Positions 2,039 to 62,277 of a stretch of DNA of 64,000 bases are shown here, piece by piece. The position numbers and the translations under genes were made by a program. This DNA comes from a phage: the sequence record PZ445487.1; one strand, written 5' to 3'. Position 1 is the first letter of the stretch. Every line of letters begins with the position of its first letter. The notes below the pieces were generated by a model. That model was given only the letters and a program-made list of their open reading frames with translations. It had not been told where the DNA came from and searched no databases.

Positions 2039-2087
2039 TCCGGTCTAAATACCCATAACACAATGAAACTTCGTTATGGGTATTTTT

Positions 2088-2687
2088 ATGAAATTTTGCG
2101 GAATCGACTATTCTTACGGCTGTCCAGCCATGTGCTTCTGGGACGACAAAGATCCTCTGGATTTTGATCATCTTCATTTCTATGCACACCATACCGTTGA
2201 GAAGCACTGTCGTCAAGTGCGACACAATATTCTTATTTTACGTCAACCCAAATATGAATCCCCCGAAGAACGGTTTTATAACATTTCCAAATGGGCTGAA
2301 GCCGTACTTCTTACGGAGAAGCCGGATTTCATCACCCTAGAAGGCTATGCTATGGGGAATTCAAAAAACTCCAATAACATATGCCAAACCGCCGAGAACA
2401 CATCTCTATTGAAACAAGCGATGCGCCGGAACAATATGGAATTTCAGATTGTTACCCCGTCTTTTGTTAAGAAACATTTTTGTGGTAAAGGAAATGCCGA
2501 CAAATTGGTCATGATAGATCACTTTGAGAAGCTGTTCAACGTTAAGATGCGCGGTATAATGGACATGTTGGACGTGAAGGATCCAAAGCCAATCGATGAC
2601 CTCGTGGATTCGTTCGCAAATATGGTTTCTGGTCCTTACTTCATAGAAAATTATCCTGATTTCAATAGAGGTGTAAGAAATGATTAA
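2088..2687 (+). CDS. RuvC-like Holliday junction resolvase
   Basis: N-terminal KFCGIDYSYG (RuvC GID motif), ITLEGYAMG second acidic motif, FCGKGNADK and DSFANM C-terminal motifs; start at ATG aa5 of track ORF. Confidence 0.5.
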   Translation: MKFCGIDYSYGCPAMCFWDDKDPLDFDHLHFYAHHTVEKHCRQVRHNILILRQPKYESPEERFYNISKWAEAVLLTEKPDFITLEGYAMGNSKNSNNICQTAENTSLLKQAMRRNNMEFQIVTPSFVKKHFCGKGNADKLVMIDHFEKLFNVKMRGIMDMLDVKDPKPIDDLVDSFANMVSGPYFIENYPDFNRGVRND

Positions 2688-2976
2688 CTACTGGCTGCTG
2701 GCAGATATACTGCTTTTCGCCTTGCTGTTGATGACGGCGTTTGTTTGGATTAAGGGATTCTTGACATTCCTTCATTCATTAAGTGCCATGGTATCTTTCT
2801 ATGCGGTTTCACCACATAGTGACGTCAATGTAAGAGCTGCAAATCAATCTGATATGTTGGCCGAATATGTTTTGCTGCGTGATAAAGCAAGCAGGATTGT
2901 CCTGTTTTCTACGCTGGTGGGAGCAGTTATTATATTTCTACGACACGTATTGGAGGCGATTCATGCCGTTTTATGA
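2680..2976 (+). CDS. small membrane protein
   Basis: 98-aa ORF with hydrophobic helices; overlaps neighbours by a few codons. Confidence 0.4.
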   Translation: MINYWLLADILLFALLLMTAFVWIKGFLTFLHSLSAMVSFYAVSPHSDVNVRAANQSDMLAEYVLLRDKASRIVLFSTLVGAVIIFLRHVLEAIHAVL

Positions 2977-3692: not shown

Positions 3693-3693
3693 C

Positions 3694-3716
3694 TCAATAG
3701 CAAAACGCAGTATAAT
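3694..3716 (+). promoter_or_regulatory. putative promoter upstream of gene 32 (CTCAATA box + TATAAT)
   Basis: CTCAATAGCAAAACGCAGTATAAT about 70 nt upstream of gp32 ATG; approximate. Confidence 0.35.
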
Positions 3717-4850: not shown

Positions 4851-5987
4851 GTTTTTGACAACATCCTGTAACAATCCCAACAGACTACTCTTCTCAGACG
4901 CCGTCAGGTTATCATTGCCTAATATATCCCTCTGGATGCCGATAGAGATCCTTTCGAAATCAGCCAAGCTGATACCAGCCAGATTGTTTACAAGCTGATC
5001 GAGTTGCTTATAAGCCAGCAGGGCTTCACCTGTGAAGTTTCCTTCTTTGATCTTTTTATACAGCTGTCCGGCTTTTGACGCAGCGGTTTCCCAGTCTCCG
5101 GAAGCAAGAGCATCAGTAATACCCAAAGGAAGAAAATCGCTGGCGAGGCTGCGCGTTTCATATTCAGTCTCCGATAATACTTTGTTATAAGAAAAGGAAA
5201 TGTTGTACTGATTAAATTGATCGGCGGCGCTTTTATCCAGGTCTATAGAACTGAAGTTGATGGGGTGAGCCTCAGTCACATAAACGCGATGAACAACCTG
5301 ATCTTCTGTATCCATTTGTTCTATACAAATATCGGTCACGAAATCTTCATAATAACCCATCTTGGTTGTGTATGGGTCGAATATCAGATTCTTCCATTTG
5401 TCCATGACCGACTTTTCATAATAATCGTTGGCGAGGAGGAACGACAACTCCAGATCAATGTTCGTCTTGTTGTTCGGCATTTTAATGTGGTTGCCGTTGT
5501 TGGTCATGGGAGTAGTGTCAATCCCTGTACCAGGTAAAGATGCGACCATACACATCATTTGCAGGGAACGAGATGTTTGGTTTGTCCCTCCAAAGAATGC
5601 GTTTACAATACGGGCGCTTTGTTTGAACAGATCCCCAAATGATGAAGATGAAGGATACGCGTTCCCATCATTTGCTAGTGTTGCATTGGAATCAAATATC
5701 CCAGGCGGCAACGGAATTGTAACACGAAATCTGTTCTTGCGGGAAATACCCCGTTGAAGCAGTTGCGTTAGAAAATTGCGATAGTCTTCCACGATGAGGA
5801 CTCCATTTAAATAATATATCTGTTGATATTTATAAGGAGTTGACAAATGGCTAAGAACGCTATGGGTGAAGAAGACCCGTTGTTGCTTCCCGCCGAGATG
5901 GACGCCCCAGAACTGGTCAAGCGTTACATCCGCAAATATCGTCAACATTTTGGGCCGGAAGCGAAGCGTAATATCCGTCGTTCTCAT
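4848..5987 (-). CDS. hypothetical protein (start uncertain)
   Basis: 379-aa ORF; first in-frame ATGs lack clear RBS and 5-prime end overlaps divergent gene at 5847. Confidence 0.4.
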   Translation of the reverse strand: MRTTDITLRFRPKMLTIFADVTLDQFWGVHLGGKQQRVFFTHSVLSHLSTPYKYQQIYYLNGVLIVEDYRNFLTQLLQRGISRKNRFRVTIPLPPGIFDSNATLANDGNAYPSSSSFGDLFKQSARIVNAFFGGTNQTSRSLQMMCMVASLPGTGIDTTPMTNNGNHIKMPNNKTNIDLELSFLLANDYYEKSVMDKWKNLIFDPYTTKMGYYEDFVTDICIEQMDTEDQVVHRVYVTEAHPINFSSIDLDKSAADQFNQYNISFSYNKVLSETEYETRSLASDFLPLGITDALASGDWETAASKAGQLYKKIKEGNFTGEALLAYKQLDQLVNNLAGISLADFERISIGIQRDILGNDNLTASEKSSLLGLLQDVVKN

Positions 5988-7664: not shown

Positions 7665-7742
7665 TATTCACGCCAGTCCGCGCTGATACAGCGTTCCGTT
7701 GTCTAACACAGAAGTGTTAACCAACTTTTCAATAAAAAGTGG

Positions 7743-7770
7743 TTTACATCTTCTAAAAAGGCAGTATATT
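7743..7770 (+). promoter_or_regulatory. putative sigma70-like promoter (TTTACA N16 TATATT)
   Basis: -35/-10 hexamers with 16-nt spacer about 70 nt upstream of 7838; TTCAATAAA box just upstream. Confidence 0.4.
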
Positions 7771-7837: not shown

Positions 7838-8797
7838 ATGTCCTATATTCTTCATATCGAGTCCGGCCTGAAATTTGAAATTGATGGTAAAACCGCTGCT
7901 GAACTTCAAGCAGAAATTAAAGGTGCAGACCTTATCATTGGCAATGTAACATTACGCCGCATGATGGAAGGCGTCCTTCAGTCAGCCAATGGCTTTGAAC
8001 TCATCGAAGGTCTGAGCCAGGAAGAGAAAGAAGAGACTCTCGAAGCTCTTGACCGCGCTGAAGCCGAAAAAGTTAAACCGACCGAAGATGCGGGGGTTAA
8101 ACAGGGCGACGGTGAATCAAATCCGGTGATTGACGCCGAAGAAACGGTTGGGCAACCTGTCGGTGATCAAAATTCCCAGACCGTCGAAGACGGTTCTCTT
8201 GAAGTCAACAAAGACGGTTCCATTTCCCTGGTAGTTGAAGGCGAAGAAGTTCTTGACGAAGAAGCGCAAGCCCGTGCTGAAGAAGTTCGCCGTCGTATGC
8301 TGGGCACAACCGTTGCTGAAGCAATCGCCGACGTTGAAAATCCGAAGGATGATCAGGCTTTAGCGAACGCGAAGGCGGTTCTGGCCAAGAAATCTTCTGA
8401 AATGCGCCCTGCATCTTCTACCGAAGAACGCAAGCGTCGTCATAACAAGCGTGAAGAAATGGTTGAAGCGGCTCGCGCATCCAATTATGGTCCGATCCTT
8501 GCTGCGGTTGAATCGGGGGTTGTGCCTGGGGTTTATTTGAGCTATGTGAATCCGGATATGCGCTGGTTCCAGTTCCCTGTTACCGAATTGGCAGATGAAG
8601 CCAATCCACACGCCCGCACCAATACTTATGTTGATCTGGCGCCGATCGTTTCCGGCGGCTGGGGGTTCAGTCTGTATGTGAATGGTAAATCATTCACCAA
8701 ACGCCAGAAAATCAAAGAAACTGATGCCGAATCTCTGGTGAAAGCAATCAATGAATGGTTACCACAGGCGTTGGCCGAAGCGAAAGCTGCTGCGTAA
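7838..8797 (+). CDS. hypothetical acidic protein
   Basis: 319-aa ORF with acidic low-complexity centre. Confidence 0.5.
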   Translation: MSYILHIESGLKFEIDGKTAAELQAEIKGADLIIGNVTLRRMMEGVLQSANGFELIEGLSQEEKEETLEALDRAEAEKVKPTEDAGVKQGDGESNPVIDAEETVGQPVGDQNSQTVEDGSLEVNKDGSISLVVEGEEVLDEEAQARAEEVRRRMLGTTVAEAIADVENPKDDQALANAKAVLAKKSSEMRPASSTEERKRRHNKREEMVEAARASNYGPILAAVESGVVPGVYLSYVNPDMRWFQFPVTELADEANPHARTNTYVDLAPIVSGGWGFSLYVNGKSFTKRQKIKETDAESLVKAINEWLPQALAEAKAAA

Positions 8798-8812: not shown

Positions 8813-8856
8813 TTCAATAGATAAAGGGGCTGCTATAATAGCAGCTCCTTTTGTTT
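8813..8856 (+). promoter_or_regulatory. composite terminator/promoter element (TTCAAT N15 TATAAT with -10 in hairpin loop, then T-run)
   Basis: TTCAATAGATAAAGGGGCTGCTATAATAGCAGCTCCTTTTGTTT; 9-bp stem, loop TATAATA; approximate coordinates. Confidence 0.5.
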
Positions 8857-8869
8857 ATTGGAGCATGTC

Positions 8870-9532
8870 ATGTCTTATTCGCTCAAAGGGCTGTTGAAGC
8901 GCCCTGTGCATTTGTTTGTCAAACCACCTGCTGTAGAAAGGGAATATTCGGCACGAGGAGAGTTGTATTACATTAAAGGCTCCAATGGTAGTGGTAAGTC
9001 TACTGTGCCTTCTTATTTGGCGGAGAATGATCCTCAGGCGTATGTCGTAACCCACAACAGTAAGATCATGCTCACGGTTTGTCCATCTTATAATATTGTC
9101 TGTGTCGGTAAATATGACAAGTCTAAGTCCAAAGGGGTTGATTCTCTGAAGGATACTGAGCAGATGTTGTTCGCGTTGTCTATTGCTGACCAACCAGAAT
9201 ACCTGAAATATGATGTGATTTTCGAAGGCATCATTCCGTCTACATTATTGAGTTCTTGGATTCCCCGCCTGACACGCCCACCACGTGAATTGGTCGTCCT
9301 CTTTATGGATACCCCTCTTGAAACCTGTATTGCCCGTGTTAAATCGCGTAACGGTGGCGCAGACTTCAATGAAAGTCTGGTGGTCGAGAAGTGGGAGAGA
9401 GTTCATGATCACCGTCAACGGCATAAAGGCTTGTTCCCTACCGTTCCCGCAGGTATGATGAAGTCCGATGGCCTGACTGTAGAGCAGGCTGTTTTTGCGT
9501 TTCTCAATCGTGATTTTGGGAGTATTTATTGA
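8870..9532 (+). CDS. P-loop NTPase/kinase-like protein
   Basis: Walker A GSNGSGKST; start at ATG with GGAG RBS (aa5 of track ORF, whose first codon is TTG). Confidence 0.5.
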   Translation: MSYSLKGLLKRPVHLFVKPPAVEREYSARGELYYIKGSNGSGKSTVPSYLAENDPQAYVVTHNSKIMLTVCPSYNIVCVGKYDKSKSKGVDSLKDTEQMLFALSIADQPEYLKYDVIFEGIIPSTLLSSWIPRLTRPPRELVVLFMDTPLETCIARVKSRNGGADFNESLVVEKWERVHDHRQRHKGLFPTVPAGMMKSDGLTVEQAVFAFLNRDFGSIY

Positions 9533-15024: not shown

Positions 15025-15026
15025 CT

Positions 15027-15054
15027 TCAATAATGGTGATCATAGGGTATAATC
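15027..15054 (+). promoter_or_regulatory. putative promoter (TTCAATAA N16 TATAAT)
   Basis: CTTCAATAATGGTGATCATAGGGTATAATC upstream of 15088. Confidence 0.4.
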
Positions 15055-15087
15055 TCTATGATCTGAATATTAACCCAGGAGCACATC

Positions 15088-15432: not shown

Positions 15433-15735
15433 ATGTCAGTTGAACAAATTGGTTTTTATCAACTCCCTTCTGATCCAAAACTGCGTCAAAAGATGATGCA
15501 GACTTTAGAAAATTGTCGCGCCGCCCAGATCCGTATCAAGTCTGAACAGACCTTTGTTACCGAAGCCCTGGCTGAATTGGCAAAAGAAACAGGCATCAAA
15601 GCCGTTGATCTGCGCAAAGTCGTTACCGATCGCGCTGGTGGAACTTATACCAAGACCATCGAGACCAGCGCCAAATACCAGGATCTTTATGAGTCGCTGT
15701 ATCCTAACGCCGCGCCTGATCGCACGGATGAATAA
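15433..15735 (+). CDS. hypothetical protein
   Basis: 100-aa ORF. Confidence 0.45.
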   Translation: MSVEQIGFYQLPSDPKLRQKMMQTLENCRAAQIRIKSEQTFVTEALAELAKETGIKAVDLRKVVTDRAGGTYTKTIETSAKYQDLYESLYPNAAPDRTDE

Positions 15736-15743
15736 TATCGGTT

Positions 15744-15768
15744 AAAGCCCAACATTTGTTGGGCTTTA
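15744..15768 (+). terminator. rho-independent terminator
   Basis: AGCCCAAC-ATTT-GTTGGGCT hairpin plus T-run. Confidence 0.65.
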
Positions 15769-15796
15769 CTTCAATAAAACTTTACTTCAATAAAAC
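15764..15796 (+). repeat. tandem direct repeat of TTTACTTCAATAAAAC (2 copies)
   Basis: two adjacent copies of a 16-nt unit carrying the TTCAATAAA box, upstream of 15853. Confidence 0.6.
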
Positions 15797-15852
15797 TTGC
15801 GGCTATCATTTAACCTACATTGAAAAGTTTCACTACATCATGAGAGGCAAAA

Positions 15853-17926: not shown

Positions 17927-18332
17927 AATCCAATGCAAATGCTGTCCGAACAAGAAGATGGTTCGCCAGGCCGACATTGACCGTGGCTGGGGGTTGTTCT
18001 GTTCTAAGTCTTGCGCCGCCTACTGGAAGACCTTTGGGTGTCGTAAAGATACCCCAACAGACCTGTCCCTGAATGGCAAGCGACCTAAATCGGCGCAGGC
18101 AATCCTTTCTGATTTGCGGAAAGAGTCTGTCCGCCTTTCTGCTGGCCTCACTGAAGAGCAGATGGACAAACTCAATAAGGCGGGTTGTGGTTATATCCGA
18201 TTCGACGGAATGGACTATCCTCTGTTCAGTTCTCGCCAGCTCAGAGTCCTTGGGGCTTCAAAGGCTGAGATAAGAGAAGCTGAACGCGATGAAGCCGAAG
18301 AGGGCGCATACGGCCATCACGATTTTCAATAA
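17913..18332 (+). CDS. hypothetical zinc-finger protein
   Basis: track ORF 17721-18332 trimmed to ATG (MSKVEIQCKCCPNKK) overlapping upstream stop; CxC..C..C pattern. Confidence 0.4.
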   Translation: MSKVEIQCKCCPNKKMVRQADIDRGWGLFCSKSCAAYWKTFGCRKDTPTDLSLNGKRPKSAQAILSDLRKESVRLSAGLTEEQMDKLNKAGCGYIRFDGMDYPLFSSRQLRVLGASKAEIREAERDEAEEGAYGHHDFQ

Positions 18333-18379
18333 ACGATTTACCCATATAATGCATGGGAACTTTACAGAAGGATCAGACT

Positions 18380-18739: not shown

Positions 18740-18792
18740 ATCTATTGAAGTCTCTAGGGTTATAATAGCATGACGAATAACCCTGGAGACAC

Positions 18793-20224: not shown

Positions 20225-20271
20225 CGGGGTTCTTCGGAACCCCCATTCAATAAAGACAGTAGCAGTATAAT
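20225..20271 (+). promoter_or_regulatory. terminator hairpin followed by TTCAATAAA N14 TATAAT promoter-like element
   Basis: CGGGGTTCTTCGGAACCCC hairpin then ATTCAATAAAGACAGTAGCAGTATAATT; approximate. Confidence 0.45.
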
Positions 20272-26297: not shown

Positions 26298-26918
26298 ATG
26301 GCTATGTATTTGCAGGGGAAGTATGTTCCCGTAAATCCCAAGAAATATAAAGGCGACGTGAACAAAATAGTATTTCGTTCTTCGCTAGAACTTGTCGCCT
26401 TTAAATTTTGTGATATGAATCCTGCTATCGTCTATTGGTCTTCAGAAGAAACTGTAATCCCTTACATATCTCCGGTTGATGGCCGCGCCCATCGTTATTT
26501 CATGGATTTGAAGGTTTGGACTCGTCGGCAGGATTCCGATGAATTACAAATTACTCTTATTGAAATAAAACCCAAAGACCAGATTAAAGAACCTCGCAAA
26601 ACTAAAACGATGAAGGAATCAACATTCAATAATTCAATGCGCACTTGGTTGGTAAATCAGGCAAAGTGGACAGCAACTAAAGAACATTGCGCAAAGGTAG
26701 GTTGGAAATTCATTATCTGGACAGAAGAACATTTGGTGCCAGGTGAAGACCCAGAAGTTAAAAAACAATTTGCTCTTCGTTCTAAGAAAAAGCGCGAAGT
26801 CGAAATGGAAGATCGACGCCGCGCTCAAAGGATTAATGCGTTGAAAGAGCAAATGAAGAAGGAAACTGCTAATAAACAACCAACGCAATCGGAAGATGAT
26901 GGTTTGTTATTACCCTGA
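26298..26918 (+). CDS. hypothetical protein, possible PD-(D/E)xK nuclease fold
   Basis: FMDLKVW ... ELQITLIEIKPK resembles a D...ExK core; basic C-terminus. Confidence 0.35.
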   Translation: MAMYLQGKYVPVNPKKYKGDVNKIVFRSSLELVAFKFCDMNPAIVYWSSEETVIPYISPVDGRAHRYFMDLKVWTRRQDSDELQITLIEIKPKDQIKEPRKTKTMKESTFNNSMRTWLVNQAKWTATKEHCAKVGWKFIIWTEEHLVPGEDPEVKKQFALRSKKKREVEMEDRRRAQRINALKEQMKKETANKQPTQSEDDGLLLP

Positions 26919-27128
26919 TTTCCTTGGATGTCCAGGGGCAAAGCAAGTTTGTTTGTCCCTGCATATCATCCACCCATCAGCACGGGCTTGTCTAGCACAG
27001 TCTCCCCAAGATTCACCAGCATAAGACTTCATCCCACATCTGGGGTGATGTTCTTGCCAAGCCCAATTACAAGATTTGCATTCAACACACTCACAATACA
27101 AATCGACGGTGTATCCTGCAGTAATCAT
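26910..27128 (-). CDS. small Cys-rich protein
   Basis: 72-aa ORF with CECVECKSC cysteines filling an inter-gene gap. Confidence 0.35.
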   Translation of the reverse strand: MITAGYTVDLYCECVECKSCNWAWQEHHPRCGMKSYAGESWGDCARQARADGWMICRDKQTCFAPGHPRKSG

Positions 27129-28376: not shown

Positions 28377-28439
28377 GTTTGTCTCTCCCAATAAATTAAG
28401 GGGAAGTATACCTTCCCCTTTCTTCAATAACCTAAAATA

Positions 28440-33432: not shown

Positions 33433-33481
33433 GTTATTTGTCTCATTATGGGGTTAGGCGGCAATTATACCGCCAATTTAT

Positions 33482-33895
33482 TCAATAGAGGTCTTCGGAA
33501 AAGAGTTTTTTGAAAGGAGTGTTCTTCAAACGGACCTGATTAGTTTGTCCGGCTTCACGGGCGACCACAGCGGCCTCTTCACGGGACATCCATTGCCCAT
33601 AGTTATCAATAAACCCTTGTTCACGAGTGTGGGTGGTTTCGATAATACCTGCTTCCTTCAATCGTTTGAGTTGCGTGTTCATCAATTTGTCGTGATGTCG
33701 GGCGCTTACAACGATCACATCACCATATTTGTTGGCAGCAGCCACAACACGCCGATCAAACTTGGTTGGGTCAGGTATATCACGAGCATACAAGGCGATG
33801 TGAGTGTCGTCCACGTCCCCTTTCACTTCAGAGTATAATTGACACCCATTAGGAGATCCAGTAGGCAAAGAACGAAAATATCCAAGTAATTTCAT
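33482..33895 (-). CDS. hypothetical protein
   Basis: 137-aa ORF. Confidence 0.4.
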   Translation of the reverse strand: MKLLGYFRSLPTGSPNGCQLYSEVKGDVDDTHIALYARDIPDPTKFDRRVVAAANKYGDVIVVSARHHDKLMNTQLKRLKEAGIIETTHTREQGFIDNYGQWMSREEAAVVAREAGQTNQVRLKNTPFKKLFSEDLY

Positions 33896-47956: not shown

Positions 47957-47994
47957 GGGGATAGAGCAATAATACCCTATCCCCATTTATTGAA
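47957..47994 (-). promoter_or_regulatory. composite terminator/promoter element (TTCAAT N14 TATTAT in hairpin loop, T-run)
   Basis: minus orientation TTCTTCAATAAATGGGGATAGGGTATTATTGCTCTATCCCCTTTTC; approximate. Confidence 0.5.
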
Positions 47995-50917: not shown

Positions 50918-50941
50918 AAAATCAATCCTTGCAAAAAGAAA

Positions 50942-50980
50942 GGGGAACGGGCTAATAATAACCCATTCCCCTTTATTGAA
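50942..50980 (-). promoter_or_regulatory. composite terminator/promoter element (TTCAAT N14 TATTAT in hairpin loop, T-run)
   Basis: minus orientation TTCTTCAATAAAGGGGAATGGGTTATTATTAGCCCGTTCCCCTTTCTTT; approximate. Confidence 0.5.
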
Positions 50981-55541: not shown

Positions 55542-55601
55542 AACAATACCTGTTGTCAAAGGGATAACAGGGGGAATTATATCCCCCTTTGGTTTATTGA
55601 A

Positions 55602-58598
55602 TCAACCTTTCTTGCCCATCATGGACAACAGATTAACTCGACGTTTATGAGACCAACCAACCACATCCAAGATAGACTGAATTGGCTCTATAAAGGTCTT
55701 TTCAAACGTGGTGTGGTAATCCACCCATTTATCCAATCCCAATTCTGGAGGAAGGAAGTCAGGGAAGGCTATGCGATCATTCCCCACAGGATTGCCAGGT
55801 TTCAGGTTGATGATTTTAACCTTATCACCGGATTCGATAGGCGGAAGACCGAGATCTTCGTGCTTATCGATCAGCTTGTTGTACATAATACAAGCCTTGG
55901 CAGCAAAGTGCGTACCGCTGATGTAATTCCCGTTCGCGTCTAACCACTTCTCAATATCGCTCACACCAGATGCCTGAGCGATATCATCCACGGTGAGTTC
56001 CATATATTCCTTTTTGTATCCAGCGATTAATTCCTGAACCTCCGCCTCAGTACCGAGCAGGACTTTCTCATAACATTTGACAAGACGCTCACGACACCAT
56101 TCCGGCGTTGTAGATTTACGCGCTTCCAGACCTTTGAATTTGATCTTTGGTTTCTCATACTTGATGCCTTCGCTATCGTATACTGCCATGCAATACATCT
56201 TCTTGGCTCGCCATACAGCAGACGATGCGATGACCTCACGTTCCCAGACCATGCGCTGCTCAAACCCGTTCATGGTATTACACAGCAATTGCGCCCATTC
56301 ACTAGTTTTTGGTTGGTAATTCTCTTTGATCCATTGGTCGATGTTATCAACAAGTTTATGATGATCCTTTTCATCAGGCCATAATTGCTTGACCAGGCGT
56401 TCAATGCAAATATAATTGGAGTCTGTATCACCTGCGATAACAAAATCCTGACCAGTAGTACCACAAAGTTTGTTCAGATAATCATCAGTGTGGCGTTTGT
56501 TCCATTTATTGATCAGCTGGCCGGAAGTGGTAATTGCTTCAGCGATGTTGATGTTGAAGTATTCTTTAAACCAGACGTTAGAAATTGCACCATATCCTGC
56601 GTTCATCAAGATCTTCAGACCTTGTTGTAACGTATCTTGGGCAACTCCCAAATCTTCCCACTTGTGCATGACTTCGGTCAGGTGATCAAGGTCGATATGC
56701 TTGTGTTCTTCATACCATTCAGGATCGTAGAAACGAGACTTCATGGCGGATTCAAGGTGGAAATCACCTTTAGACATTTCCTTACACCAACCAGCCCATT
56801 GCTCATACTTCAGGCCAGTTGCTTTCTCTCCTTTACGGTCAGCGTATATGCCTCGCATAATTTCGGAAAGGAAGGACATCTTCTCATTACTGAAGAACTG
56901 AACGTTCGGGGTAAAAGAAACGTTATAACGGCGTAACGTTTCAAAATGGAATTCACCCAGCGCGACCAATTCATCAACAACTTGTATGCGTTCATCAATA
57001 GCACGCTGCAGCTTGTCGTGAAGATTTTTGAGATGACGGCGCTTGTTCATAGGCGTTGTCATATCATTCATCGCTTTGGTCAATTCTTCACACATGGACT
57101 CAATGATATCGCGACGTGTGTGCTTGTCAGAAACGATAGTCTCAGGACCAAGGTTGTATTGCTGTATGATGTGGGGATACAGGGAGTTTAAGTCCTCAGA
57201 GAATACCCAGAAATATATCCCTGGTGCAACCTCCATGACATATGCGCCTTCAAAGTCCGTTGGACCATCATATACACGCTGTATTTTAGGGACAATCCCC
57301 TTTTCATAAAGACGATAGTAACACATCGCCAGCCATGGTGCTACAGTCCCAAGACCGTCTTCATAGTTAGATTTGGTGCGATACGCCAATACGAACATCA
57401 GCTGTATCAAACGCAGCTTTTGTTCTAAACGCCACACGAGTTTGACGTCTTTGATACCATATCGGGTGTGTTTGCAATAATCATTAAAATATAGATCATA
57501 CAATGACTTGCTTTCACTATAATCCAACTTCTTCTCACCGAGTTCACAATAAGCGATCCAATCCAGTGAGTATTTTTCGCGGGTCGTGTACGTGTGTTTC
57601 TTGTAAACTTGCATGTAGTCCATCATAGGACAACCGACGAATTGATAAGAAGTCACGTCGCCTTTACGGTCTTTGATGAAACGTTTCTTGAGTTTGCTCC
57701 AAGGACTGAGACGCTCTGCCTGAGTTTCACCGAGAACCTGCGTAATACGTTCAACCAAGTACGGGCTATCAAACGTTTCGATGTTCCAGCCAGTCCAACC
57801 ATCAAATTGACGTTCAGACCAATAATCTAAGAAAGCGCGAAGAAGTTCTTGTTCAGTAGTGTATTCTTTGTATTCAACCTCAAGACCACCTATCTCTTCA
57901 TCATTTGGATCATATTTGAATTTATGGCGATCCTTAGAGCACGGCATACCCCAGACATAGAACTTGTTGGTGTTCATGTCTTGAAGCTGGATGAGCGTAA
58001 TAGGGAAGGCGGCATTCATGTTCTGTGTGATCTTCCCATTACTATCAATGATAGGGAACTGGTCAGTCACGTTGTTGGAAATAAAGGAACCTGGGAAATG
58101 CTCTCGAACGAAATCATGGTTGGCCAACACTTGCTTATGAAATCGGCGAACACGCGCCTCGCTCCCCTTAAACGTGTGGGATTCAATCGTCGCGTGAGGA
58201 AATGGACCTTTAGTCATTTCTCCATCGCGCCACCCAGCCGAGAAAACTTCGATATCCACGTTGGCGATGTGAATATTTGAGTAATCGGGGGTAATCATCC
58301 CAGGAAAACTATGCGCTATGAATTGATATGCATAATCCGTTTGCCCGTAAACGGCAGCGCCTTCGACCTCCTTATATTCCTCCAGATAGTTGTCGGCGTC
58401 ACGCATTGACGCAAATTTTTTAGACACCAACGGTTCATTGAGGAGGCCAATCTTTTCAACTTTGGAATAATCGGCTGTGGGTAAATACAAGGTGGGTTCG
58501 AATTTCTTACGCAACATACGGCGATTGCCGTTGTCGTCTGCAATACGAATCAGAAGGTCGTTACCCTGTCGGGCAACGTTCGTATAGAAAACAGTCAT
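55602..58598 (-). CDS. 43: B-family DNA polymerase (T4 gp43-like)
   Basis: N-terminus MTVFYTNVARQGNDLLIR parallels T4 gp43; exo motif VDIEVF, pol motifs DLNSLYPHII and IAGDTDSNY; start trimmed to ATG with GGAG RBS. Confidence 0.9.
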   Translation of the reverse strand: MTVFYTNVARQGNDLLIRIADDNGNRRMLRKKFEPTLYLPTADYSKVEKIGLLNEPLVSKKFASMRDADNYLEEYKEVEGAAVYGQTDYAYQFIAHSFPGMITPDYSNIHIANVDIEVFSAGWRDGEMTKGPFPHATIESHTFKGSEARVRRFHKQVLANHDFVREHFPGSFISNNVTDQFPIIDSNGKITQNMNAAFPITLIQLQDMNTNKFYVWGMPCSKDRHKFKYDPNDEEIGGLEVEYKEYTTEQELLRAFLDYWSERQFDGWTGWNIETFDSPYLVERITQVLGETQAERLSPWSKLKKRFIKDRKGDVTSYQFVGCPMMDYMQVYKKHTYTTREKYSLDWIAYCELGEKKLDYSESKSLYDLYFNDYCKHTRYGIKDVKLVWRLEQKLRLIQLMFVLAYRTKSNYEDGLGTVAPWLAMCYYRLYEKGIVPKIQRVYDGPTDFEGAYVMEVAPGIYFWVFSEDLNSLYPHIIQQYNLGPETIVSDKHTRRDIIESMCEELTKAMNDMTTPMNKRRHLKNLHDKLQRAIDERIQVVDELVALGEFHFETLRRYNVSFTPNVQFFSNEKMSFLSEIMRGIYADRKGEKATGLKYEQWAGWCKEMSKGDFHLESAMKSRFYDPEWYEEHKHIDLDHLTEVMHKWEDLGVAQDTLQQGLKILMNAGYGAISNVWFKEYFNINIAEAITTSGQLINKWNKRHTDDYLNKLCGTTGQDFVIAGDTDSNYICIERLVKQLWPDEKDHHKLVDNIDQWIKENYQPKTSEWAQLLCNTMNGFEQRMVWEREVIASSAVWRAKKMYCMAVYDSEGIKYEKPKIKFKGLEARKSTTPEWCRERLVKCYEKVLLGTEAEVQELIAGYKKEYMELTVDDIAQASGVSDIEKWLDANGNYISGTHFAAKACIMYNKLIDKHEDLGLPPIESGDKVKIINLKPGNPVGNDRIAFPDFLPPELGLDKWVDYHTTFEKTFIEPIQSILDVVGWSHKRRVNLLSMMGKKG

Positions 58599-59504: not shown

Positions 59505-59599
59505 AATATTTATTGAATAAAGTTTACTTCTTCAATAACTGGCGTATACTTCTAATTGTAGTACGAACAAACAACAATCTGAAGAGAAGGAAATACATC

Positions 59600-60157
59600 A
59601 TGGCAATCGAAATTATCGCTCAATCTAAATCCGGCAAAACTGTATTGTTCGGCACCGAAGAAGGCCGTGTAATCACCACTTTGGGCACAGTTGACGGCAG
59701 CAACCCCGTAAAAGGCGGTCGCTTCCTGGTTGAGTACGGTTCTCGTGTCGTGATGGTAAGTAAAATTGATGGGCGTGATATCACCGCTCCTCGTCAAGAA
59801 TTCTTTGATTCACGTTCTGCCGCCATGCAATTCTTTCTCTTCCAGAAACGTCATGAACTCTTTGTAGAAGCGAAAGACGCAGGTCTGGACGACGAAACGG
59901 CTGAGCTGATTGCCGAAGGTAAAATGACTCTTGAGACTGCTCTGGGAGACATGGATTGCGAAGCCGAAGCGCATTATATTGAATATTCCGCATATCAGAA
60001 CGAATGTGAAGATGATCCGGAAGACGACGGATTCGACCCTGACCTCCACGGCGGCGAAGACGATAACACCCCTTCCTTAGAAGTTCTGATGGCTGGCGGC
60101 CAGGCCGCTTGGGAATGGCAGAACGAGAAGAACGCCTGGCTGGATTCCCGTATCTAA
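59600..60157 (+). CDS. hypothetical acidic protein
   Basis: track ORF 59420-60157 trimmed to ATG (MAIEIIAQSK) downstream of a promoter-like TTCAATAA region. Confidence 0.45.
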   Translation: MAIEIIAQSKSGKTVLFGTEEGRVITTLGTVDGSNPVKGGRFLVEYGSRVVMVSKIDGRDITAPRQEFFDSRSAAMQFFLFQKRHELFVEAKDAGLDDETAELIAEGKMTLETALGDMDCEAEAHYIEYSAYQNECEDDPEDDGFDPDLHGGEDDNTPSLEVLMAGGQAAWEWQNEKNAWLDSRI

Positions 60158-60182: not shown

Positions 60183-60205
60183 ACTTTGAACTGAAGGACT
60201 ATATC

Positions 60206-60358
60206 ATGATTTTAATCTTATGGTTTGTATTCACATTTCTGGCCATGGCCGACATCGGCAAGTATCACGTTCTCCCAAGCGACCTGACCGTCCTGCTATA
60301 CGGCATAGTTTCGTTTGTGCTGGGTTCCTTGCGCGCCCATATGAGGACTATATCATGA
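60206..60358 (+). CDS. small membrane protein
   Basis: GAAGGA RBS before ATG (MILILWFVFTFLAMADIG). Confidence 0.4.
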   Translation: MILILWFVFTFLAMADIGKYHVLPSDLTVLLYGIVSFVLGSLRAHMRTIS

Positions 60359-61788: not shown

Positions 61789-62238
61789 TTAGGCTTCTCT
61801 GGTCGCCAACCCTGGCTTAAACACCACCATTTCCTCAACGTTATTGGCACTCATAGAGGCTATAGAATCGAACCCTTTGTTGATAAGTTCTTTCACATTA
61901 TCATGTATCTTACCAGGCTTTATCCCCAACTCTCGCATTTTATTTTCCCACACCGAAACATTGTTGGAATCTATTACAAGAGTCTTCTTGGCCTTGACAC
62001 GAAATGCCATGACAATAGGTTCACCAGATTGACGATAGCGCACGGCATTTTCTGCGTAGATCTGTGCCTTTTCTGGATCCCCCGTCAGGTAAAACCCAGC
62101 ACCCATCGTACCAGAGTCAGTCTGGCCAAATTTTTCAAAATCAAAGATATCGAATTCAACATTAGACCCATGATACAAAACGATATTCGTAAAATCAGGT
62201 AACGTTGATTCGCGATAAAATTCTAGAAAGGTTTTCAT
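61789..62238 (-). CDS. hypothetical protein, possible ADP-ribosyltransferase-fold (H-G-S motif)
   Basis: IVLYHGSNVEF followed by GAGFYLTGD and EEMVVF resembles KptA/Tpt1 and PARP-like H-G-[ST] / Y / E elements; tentative. Confidence 0.35.
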   Translation of the reverse strand: MKTFLEFYRESTLPDFTNIVLYHGSNVEFDIFDFEKFGQTDSGTMGAGFYLTGDPEKAQIYAENAVRYRQSGEPIVMAFRVKAKKTLVIDSNNVSVWENKMRELGIKPGKIHDNVKELINKGFDSIASMSANNVEEMVVFKPGLATREA

Positions 62239-62277
62239 AGATACCCCACACTGGTCGTATGGGGTATTTAGGATGGA

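Follow-up and report, generated by a model that had tools for sequence, protein, structure and literature searches.

We identified the 8-mer TTCAATAA as very probably a promoter element of a ViI-like phage. It recurs in front of many genes of the stretch analysed here (64,000 nucleotides of phage record PZ445487.1, hereafter the window). Our fuller reading, to which we give a probability of roughly one half, is that it constitutes the upstream element of the non-late promoters of ViI-like phages and is read by a putative phage factor. The box is the upstream half of a published ViI-like motif and hence not new: a 2020 paper lists TTCAAT[N14]TATAAT, alongside the late-type CTAAATAcCcc, as one of two regulatory motifs unique to this group (PMC7283392). 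That paper lists the occurrences of the motif, without a mechanism, the -30 geometry or the -10 hairpin described below.

Occurrence of the box in phage CBA120

The window matches Escherichia phage CBA120 (NC_016570.1; Kuttervirus, Ackermannviridae) at all 64,000 bases, once that record is reverse-complemented and its two ends are joined, and this 100% identity makes the source genome a ViI-like member of the Ackermannviridae. The RefSeq gene table of CBA120 was moved onto window coordinates and the whole genome of 157,304 bp was assembled for the census; non-coding DNA accounts for 5.8% of the window and 8.7% of the genome. The window holds 12 copies of the 9-mer TTCAATAAA, against 1.39 ± 1.17 expected from dinucleotide-preserving shuffles, none of which (0/100) reached 12. 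As for the 8-mer TTCAATAA, 11 of its 19 window copies touch the non-coding 5.8% (binomial p = 1e-9), and a twelfth, at 18325, shares bases with the orf055 stop codon. In the genome as a whole, 30 of 44 copies fall in the non-coding 8.7%, a 22.6-fold excess in density (p = 5e-22). No other 8-mer is as frequent or as over-represented in the non-coding DNA of CBA120, where TTCAATAA is three times as common as the late-type CTAAATAC box, the unrelated motif that ranks next.

This enrichment, both over shuffles and in non-coding DNA, confirms the recurrent intergenic box reported in the initial annotation, and the distribution over coding and non-coding DNA is far from the equal frequency that it had named as a refuting outcome. 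All the sites that it listed were recovered within 1-4 nt, the one near 3694 being merely the variant CTCAATAG; the others are at 7728, 8813 (TTCAATAGA), 15026, 15770, 15786, 18325, 20246, 59531, ~47986-47987(-) and ~50972-50973(-). Boxes at ~55593-55594(-) and 33477(-) were absent from its list. The placement is directional, 24 of the 30 non-coding boxes aiming at a gene start no more than 250 nt away. The distance from box to gene start is 44-102 nt, with a TATAAT-like hexamer after the box. Genes behind box promoters include SSB, nrdA, the clamp loader, the ligase and gp59 operons, polymerase-adjacent genes, an HU-like protein and an ADP-ribosylase. The box promoters of the window are as follows.

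3693-3716 (+): degenerate box promoter of the SSB gene (orf082); CTCAATAG, N12, TATAAT.
8813-8851 (+): box promoter of orf074; TTCAATAG at 8813-8820, N15 from TTCAAT, TATAAT at 8834-8839; terminator-like hairpin at 8823-8851 with the -10 at its apex, then a T run.
15026-15063 (+): box promoter of orf064/orf063; TTCAATAA at 15026-15033, N16, TATAAT at 15048-15053 in the loop of a hairpin at 15038-15063.
18325-18357 (+): box promoter of orf053; TTCAATAA over the orf055 stop codon, N14, TATAAT at 18345-18350; small hairpin at 18341-18357.
20246-20271 (+): box promoter of orf050, in an operon with the gp59 helicase loader; TTCAATAA, N14, TATAAT.
33457-33485 (-): box-variant promoter of orf019; TTGAATAA, N10, TATAAT at 33464-33469; hairpin at 33457-33474 with a GGCGG/CCGCC stem and TATAAT in the loop, an arrangement matched in phage May.
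39721-39746 (-): degenerate box promoter of orf010 (histone-family DNA-binding protein); TTCATTTC, N14, TATAAT, TG extended -10.
47957-47994 (-): box promoter of orf256; TTCAATAA at 47987-47994, N14, TATTAT at 47969-47974; terminator-like hairpin at 47957-47984 with TATTAT in the loop, then TTTT.
50939-50980 (-): box promoter of orf250; TTCAATAA at 50973-50980, N14, TATTAT at 50955-50960; terminator-like hairpin at 50939-50974 with TATTAT in the loop, then a T run.
55569-55601 (-): box promoter of orf238, directly after the DNA polymerase gene; TTCAATAA at 55594-55601, N14, TATAAT at 55576-55581; hairpin at 55569-55588 with a GGGGGA/TCCCCC stem and TATAAT in the loop.

The orf050 promoter has no hairpin around its -10 and directly follows the ligase terminator hairpin (20226-20243); it is kept in four further Kuttervirus species. 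In two cases inverted boxes (CTATTGAA, TTATTGAA) stand 11-12 nt upstream of good -10s, at the ligase gene (18742-18766(+)) and at orf036 (28405-28430(-)).

The presumed origin of the published motif is the description of the genus Viunalikevirus by Adriaenssens and colleagues in 2012, whose abstract reportedly mentions 'conserved regulatory sequences'. Motif and CBA120 box agree in sequence, 14-nt spacing and phage group, and their core is identical; CBA120 is a founding member of the group, and our census likewise gives N14 as the mode. TTCAAT-N14-TATAAT-like sites occur in the intergenic DNA of CBA120 together with CTAAATAcCcc, given that CTAAATAC, AAATACCC and AATACCCC are among its top non-coding 8-mers. 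Genome papers before that had missed the motif. For CBA120, only eight sigma-70-like promoters were described, early and middle promoters were not identifiable by informatics, and MotA, AsiA and other known regulators were missing (Kutter 2011). The AG3 genome paper is similar and the motif was not seen there, a 2024 Ackermannviridae review makes no mention of promoters or transcription, and the literature searched yielded no experimental study of the motif.

Late-type signals are present as well. CTAAATAcCcc boxes lie at 2045-2090(+) and 62236-62271(-) and, outside the window, in the upstream regions of TSP2-4 and orf171. Their ATACCCC is complementary to a GGGGTAT that directly precedes the start codon, and pairing of the two would give a leader hairpin beside the ribosome-binding site of late genes. 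T4-consensus late promoter sequences (TATAAATA) point toward structural genes in the short divergent intergenic regions 1002-1050 and 5793-5846, flanked by baseplate hub/orf089 and tail tube/DNA end protector.

Promoter geometry and conservation

Spacers of all lengths from TTCAAT to a -10-like hexamer were scored. Of the 24 boxes that are exact and oriented toward a gene start, 8 have a good -10 at precisely 14 nt and none at 17-18 nt (p = 9e-9), with minority groups at 15-16 nt or 8-12 nt. There are at least nine exact TTCAAT-N14 sites genome-wide, those of the window being at 18325, 20246, 47987(-), 50973(-) and 55594(-). In this modal class, 12 nt separate the end of the 8-mer from the -10, or 11 nt if counted from the 9-mer. 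The 12-16 nt to the hexamer given in the initial annotation has to be revised: the mode is 11 nt from the end of the 9-mer (14 nt from TTCAAT) and the range 5-13. That the box is associated with promoters has strong support from orientation, fixed distance to the -10, intergenic enrichment and invariance over six genera.

Given the 14-nt spacing, the box falls at about -32 to -25, near -30 like the T4 MotA box and not at -35; an N14 box is 3 bp too near the -10 for a -35 hexamer. The initial annotation was right that the box resembles neither of the two obvious candidates. TTCAAT agrees with TTGACA at 3 of 6 positions, where a canonical sigma-70 element would have at least 4, and its distance is wrong too, the mode of 14 nt and the minority at 15-16 nt comparing with a canonical spacer of 16-18 nt. 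The MotA box is (a/t)(a/t)(a/t)TGCTT(t/c)A, and TTCAATAA is without the TGCTT core. The -10 is of canonical type, with A at position 2 and T at position 6 (TATAAT, TATTAT, TATGAT or TATATT), and the TG extended -10 is missing from most box promoters. A consensus sigma-70 scan called 0 box promoters, though it called TTTACT/TTTACA-N16/17 promoters.

We compared the syntenic regions of Klebsiella phage May and Serratia phage IME250 (both Taipeivirus), Shigella phage AG3 (Agtrevirus), Dickeya phage JA15 (Limestonevirus), Erwinia phage Bue1 (Nezavisimistyvirus) and Serratia phage Kevin (Miltonvirus). In the alignments upstream of orf074 and orf064, which cover 7 phages of 6 genera with Escherichia, Klebsiella, Serratia, Shigella, Dickeya and Erwinia as hosts, the only invariant blocks besides the start codon are TTC-AT(A) and (G)TATAAT. 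Among the orthologous spacers, those of orf074 measure 15 nt in 7/7 phages and those of orf064 14-16 nt. That box and -10 remained invariant while flanks and spacers diverged argues for selection on the box itself. A scan of IMG/VR for TTCAATAA-N12-TATAAT gave mostly single, chance-like matches among the matches listed. A side observation concerns orf074 (8870-9532(+)), which is a 'terminase small subunit' in RefSeq, yet lies within a nucleotide-metabolism operon; in JA15 and Kevin the orthologues carry the annotation thymidylate kinase, and a different gene for a small terminase adjoins that for the large terminase. The RefSeq annotation is probably wrong.

The main rival of a phage factor is direct recognition, in which the box would be an unusual -35 read by region 4 of the host sigma-70, making these ordinary host-type early promoters that owe their strength to the near-consensus -10 and require no phage factor. 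We consider this unlikely, though it has substantial arguments on its side. The hexamers are near-consensus TATAAT, a conserved sigma-70 is common to the hosts, no activator homologue was found, and the AG3 authors marked one such site as an ordinary host-type promoter signal. Moreover, orthologous promoters tolerate 14, 15 or 16 nt, of which 16 nt is within the reach of sigma-70, and elsewhere boxes stand 8-12 nt from the -10, so that the box is not bound to one position; these points, like the AG3 assignment, also count against a factor. On the other hand, TTCAAT has only the 3/6 match to TTGACA, and the modal spacer is 14 with none at 17-18. In E. coli promoters, spacers below 15 preclude simultaneous contact with the -35 and the -10. 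Furthermore, the conserved stretch comprises 8-9 bp (TTCAATAA[A/C]) rather than 6, and the same genome has a proper N16/17 geometry with TTTACT in another class of promoters. We favour a trans-acting factor because the N14 spacing is sharp, with nothing at 17-18, and because conservation spans 8-9 bp.

Hairpins, early promoters and the tandem repeat

Many box promoters are predicted to carry a hairpin around the -10. Of 17 box promoters (0-1 mismatch in the box, spacer 13-16), 8 reach a folding energy of <= -12 kcal/mol over a 40-nt stretch with the -10 at its centre, against 2.7% of other genomic -10-like hexamers (p = 5e-9); with shuffled flanks, 0.44/17 on average reach this threshold. Folding energy replaced a first metric, the pairs enclosing the -10, for which 60% of controls were positive and which thus did not discriminate. 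The hexamer is placed in the loop or at the loop apex of these hairpins, and intrinsic-terminator-like calls in the window are at 8823-8851(+), 47984-47957(-) and 50974-50939(-). In the orf074 stem 5 of 13 pairs are changed on both sides, with 94.5% of cells paired and no shuffle as high, and in the orf064 stem 3 of 10. These compensatory changes, drawn from seven related sequences, are supportive of the predicted stems, not conclusive. For about half of the box promoters the -10 is thus predicted to be in the loop of a hairpin that is conserved and often resembles a terminator, a layout that we did not find described and that is possibly new.

Such a hairpin might end or stabilise the upstream transcript. 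RNA starting 6-9 nt past the -10 would begin within the 3' arm, and being without the 5' arm it could not form the hairpin and would escape it. The simplest reading of a hairpin around the -10 is compaction. A comparable economy is known from the PeSL and PmSL elements, in which promoter and terminator are likewise fused in compact repeated cassettes, and CBA120 shares with T4-type early promoters and PeSL the TTTACT-N16/17-TAYAMT sequence, the GC stem-loops before it and the small ORFans behind (Arbiol 2010; Comeau 2014). The arrangement differs, the stem-loop of PeSL being just upstream of the promoter and that of the CBA120 box promoters enclosing the -10. A stem-loop just upstream was found only for the TTTACT class and, in addition, at 20246 and at 15764.

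This second class of promoters, T4-early-like (G)TTTACT-N16/17-TAT(A/C)(A/C)T, stands upstream of small ORFans as well as of orf061 and orf076, and matches the T4/PST early consensus TTTACW-N17-TAYWAT (PMC4122927). In five of these promoters (orf061, orf104, orf112, orf176 and orf234) the TTCAATAA box lies within the spacer, right behind TTTAC(T). The features of the window are as follows.

7728-7770 (+): T4-early-like promoter of orf076; TTTACA-N16-TATATT at 7743-7770, box at 7728-7735 upstream at about -50; conserved in JA15.
15745-15767 (+): GC-rich hairpin after orf063, AAGCCCAACA-TTTG-TTGGGCTT; terminator-like with a short T run, adjoining the repeat upstream.
15764-15798 (+): perfect tandem repeat of the 16-bp unit CTTTACTTCAATAAAA (2.2 copies, 100% match); boxes at 15770-15777 (distal) and 15786-15793 (proximal).
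15781-15809 (+): T4-early-like sigma-70 promoter of orf061 (397 aa), from the sigma-70 scan; TTTACT at 15781-15786, N17, TATCAT at 15804-15809.
59513-59550 (+): T4-early-like promoter of orf234; TTTACT at 59523-59528, N16, TATACT at 59545-59550, box at 59531-59538 within the spacer, variant TTGAATAA at 59513-59520 upstream.

The orf234 promoter module recurs before orf112 and orf176, the upstream regions sharing roughly 80-bp modules. These modules combine the TTTACT promoters with a translation-initiation leader, approximately TTTGAAATGAAGGAACTAYATCATG, that is conserved before many small early ORFs, at 59579-59602(+) and 60185-60208(+) in the window and genome-wide before orf096, 104, 112, 138, 140, 141, 153 and 176; the leader could be a translational operator or a recombination module. 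It also precedes an ORF of ~50 codons that is absent from the CBA120 RefSeq record (60206-60358(+)), in the 197-nt 'gap' ahead of orf232. Further ORFs absent from RefSeq are 2680-2976(+) and 26910-27128(-) (98 aa and 72 aa), whose positional counterparts are annotated in May, JA15 or AG3. The products of orf076 (7838-8797(+)) and orf104 (record 55647-56135, beyond the window), both behind T4-early-like promoters with a box, have a weakly similar N-terminal domain of ~48 aa (BLASTP E = 0.003) that is winged-helix-like by eye.

The tandem duplication that the initial annotation described before the 397-aa gene, orf061, is exact (15764-15798, period 16). The hairpin adjoining it at 15745-15767 is conserved in relatives, and a strict terminator scan makes no call there. 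In the orf061 promoter the proximal box lies in the spacer, an arrangement conserved in Kuttervirus and Taipeivirus relatives. Within Kuttervirus the distal copy has one mismatch in SeSz-1 and is degenerate in ECML-4, Maynard and Se-J, the proximal copy and the -10 being unchanged; a degenerate second copy is found also in Taipeivirus (May, IME250), Agtrevirus (AG3) and Limestonevirus (JA15), and in Miltonvirus two boxes stand 23 nt apart. In IMG/VR the perfect 16-bp repeat occurs in only 2 contigs, both CBA120-like genomes of ~158 kb, and a hypothetical single-copy form of the orf061 promoter has no match there. Since the proximal copy is unchanged and the distal one degenerate in most relatives, the proximal copy is the constrained one. 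To judge from these alignments, the perfect duplication is a recent product of slippage or conversion in the CBA120 lineage, on top of an older, decaying two-box arrangement; it is a minor lineage-specific feature and no special regulatory device.

Boxes in these positions raise the question of whether the box is mainly an operator, through which a phage regulator represses or times promoters (early shut-off or autoregulation) rather than activating them. It is suggestive that boxes lie in the spacer or over the -35 of the T4-early-like promoters of orf061, orf104, orf112, orf176 and orf234, that a tandem pair precedes orf061 in several genera, and that there are a few inverted copies before the -10s at the ligase gene (18742-18766) and orf036 (28405-28430). 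We nevertheless hold this improbable, given that the largest class (N14-16) is without any other -35-like element, so that a box serving repression only would leave these promoters with no upstream recognition, and that the distal tandem copy is not conserved.

Another explanation would dispense with a binding protein altogether, the repeats being PeSL-like mobile cassettes of promoter and stem-loop and the motif being sharp through common descent, not through selection on a protein site. Composites of this kind are repeated and shuffled in T4-type phages (PMC2839356, PMC4122927), the modules of roughly 80 bp common to the orf112, orf176 and orf234 upstream regions have such an appearance, and the perfect tandem copy resembles slippage. 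Yet the orthologues of six genera keep box and -10 while flanks and spacers diverged, which points to selection on the box, and the distance to the -10 is constrained; we therefore regard descent of this sort as a very improbable source of the motif.

The putative reader of the box

In the reading that we prefer, TTCAATAA would be the upstream recognition element of conserved pre-replicative, 'middle'-like promoters in ViI-like phages. The TATAAT-like -10 would be read by the host sigma-70 RNA polymerase, and a putative factor, phage-encoded or delivered with the virion, would read the box and stand in for -35 recognition. The same factor, when bound to a box in a spacer (e.g. that of orf061), would be positioned to turn early promoters down. 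Thymidine is hypermodified in the DNA of these phages (PMC5889632). From the observed enrichment, orientation, spacing, conservation and covariation we infer promoter activity, its timing and the existence of the factor. A phage-encoded activator, as proposed in the initial annotation, would be consistent with the -30 geometry.

The resemblance to T4 MotA/AsiA would be functional, not homologous. T4 middle promoters likewise have, in place of the -35 element, a box of 9 bp that lies 11-13 bp ahead of a sigma-70 -10, and likewise stand upstream of replication and nucleotide-metabolism genes; late machinery, too, is common to T4 and CBA120 (gp55, gp33 and gp45 homologues). The CBA120 boxes share the MotA-type geometry, near -30 and 11-13 bp from the -10 (for the T4 geometry see also PMC4122927), whereas the box itself differs (TTTGCTTTA in T4, TTCAATAA in CBA120) and CBA120 is without MotA and AsiA homologues. 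Searches with T4 MotA (whole, N- and C-terminal domains) and AsiA by phmmer --max against 203 proteins and 1774 six-frame ORFs yielded no significant match (best E = 0.04), and no member of phrog_1345 or phrog_1166, the MotA and AsiA PHROGs, was found among 24 scanned regulators and early ORFs. Pfam and PHROG scans of the same 24 gave no DNA-binding activator, the sole DNA-binding Pfam family being that of orf125 (HU-family). To our knowledge, the box also does not match the sites of IHF, sigma-32, sigma-S, Fur or PhoB.

Several products were considered as binders of the box. No activator-like domain was found in orf108, orf125 (HU family), orf010, orf140, orf061 or 17 early ORFans. The 'transcriptional regulator' orf063 (15433-15735(+)), just upstream of the tandem repeat, is a member of the T4 DsbA family (phrog_639), with no pairwise similarity to T4 DsbA by BLASTP despite the common phrog_639. 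It is an unlikely primary activator because it is itself expressed from a box promoter. T4 DsbA, of the same PHROG 639, is a dsDNA-binding protein aiding some late promoters. Searches of PDB sequences with orf061 and orf063 gave no match.

A more far-reaching proposal we advance only tentatively. The box could be the target of a putative activator or sigma-appropriation system, Ackermannviridae-wide and distinct from MotA/AsiA, that would drive middle transcription and also shut off those early promoters whose spacer holds the box, while the hairpins might act as 'stop-and-restart' insulators separating transcription units.

The motif had already been published as a signature of the genus, so the element itself is not new. 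A promoter inside a terminator hairpin would be a compact design that could interest engineers of these phages, which are widely used in biocontrol. If a factor that binds the box is found, it would represent a second, independent replacement of the -35 in a T4-related lineage.
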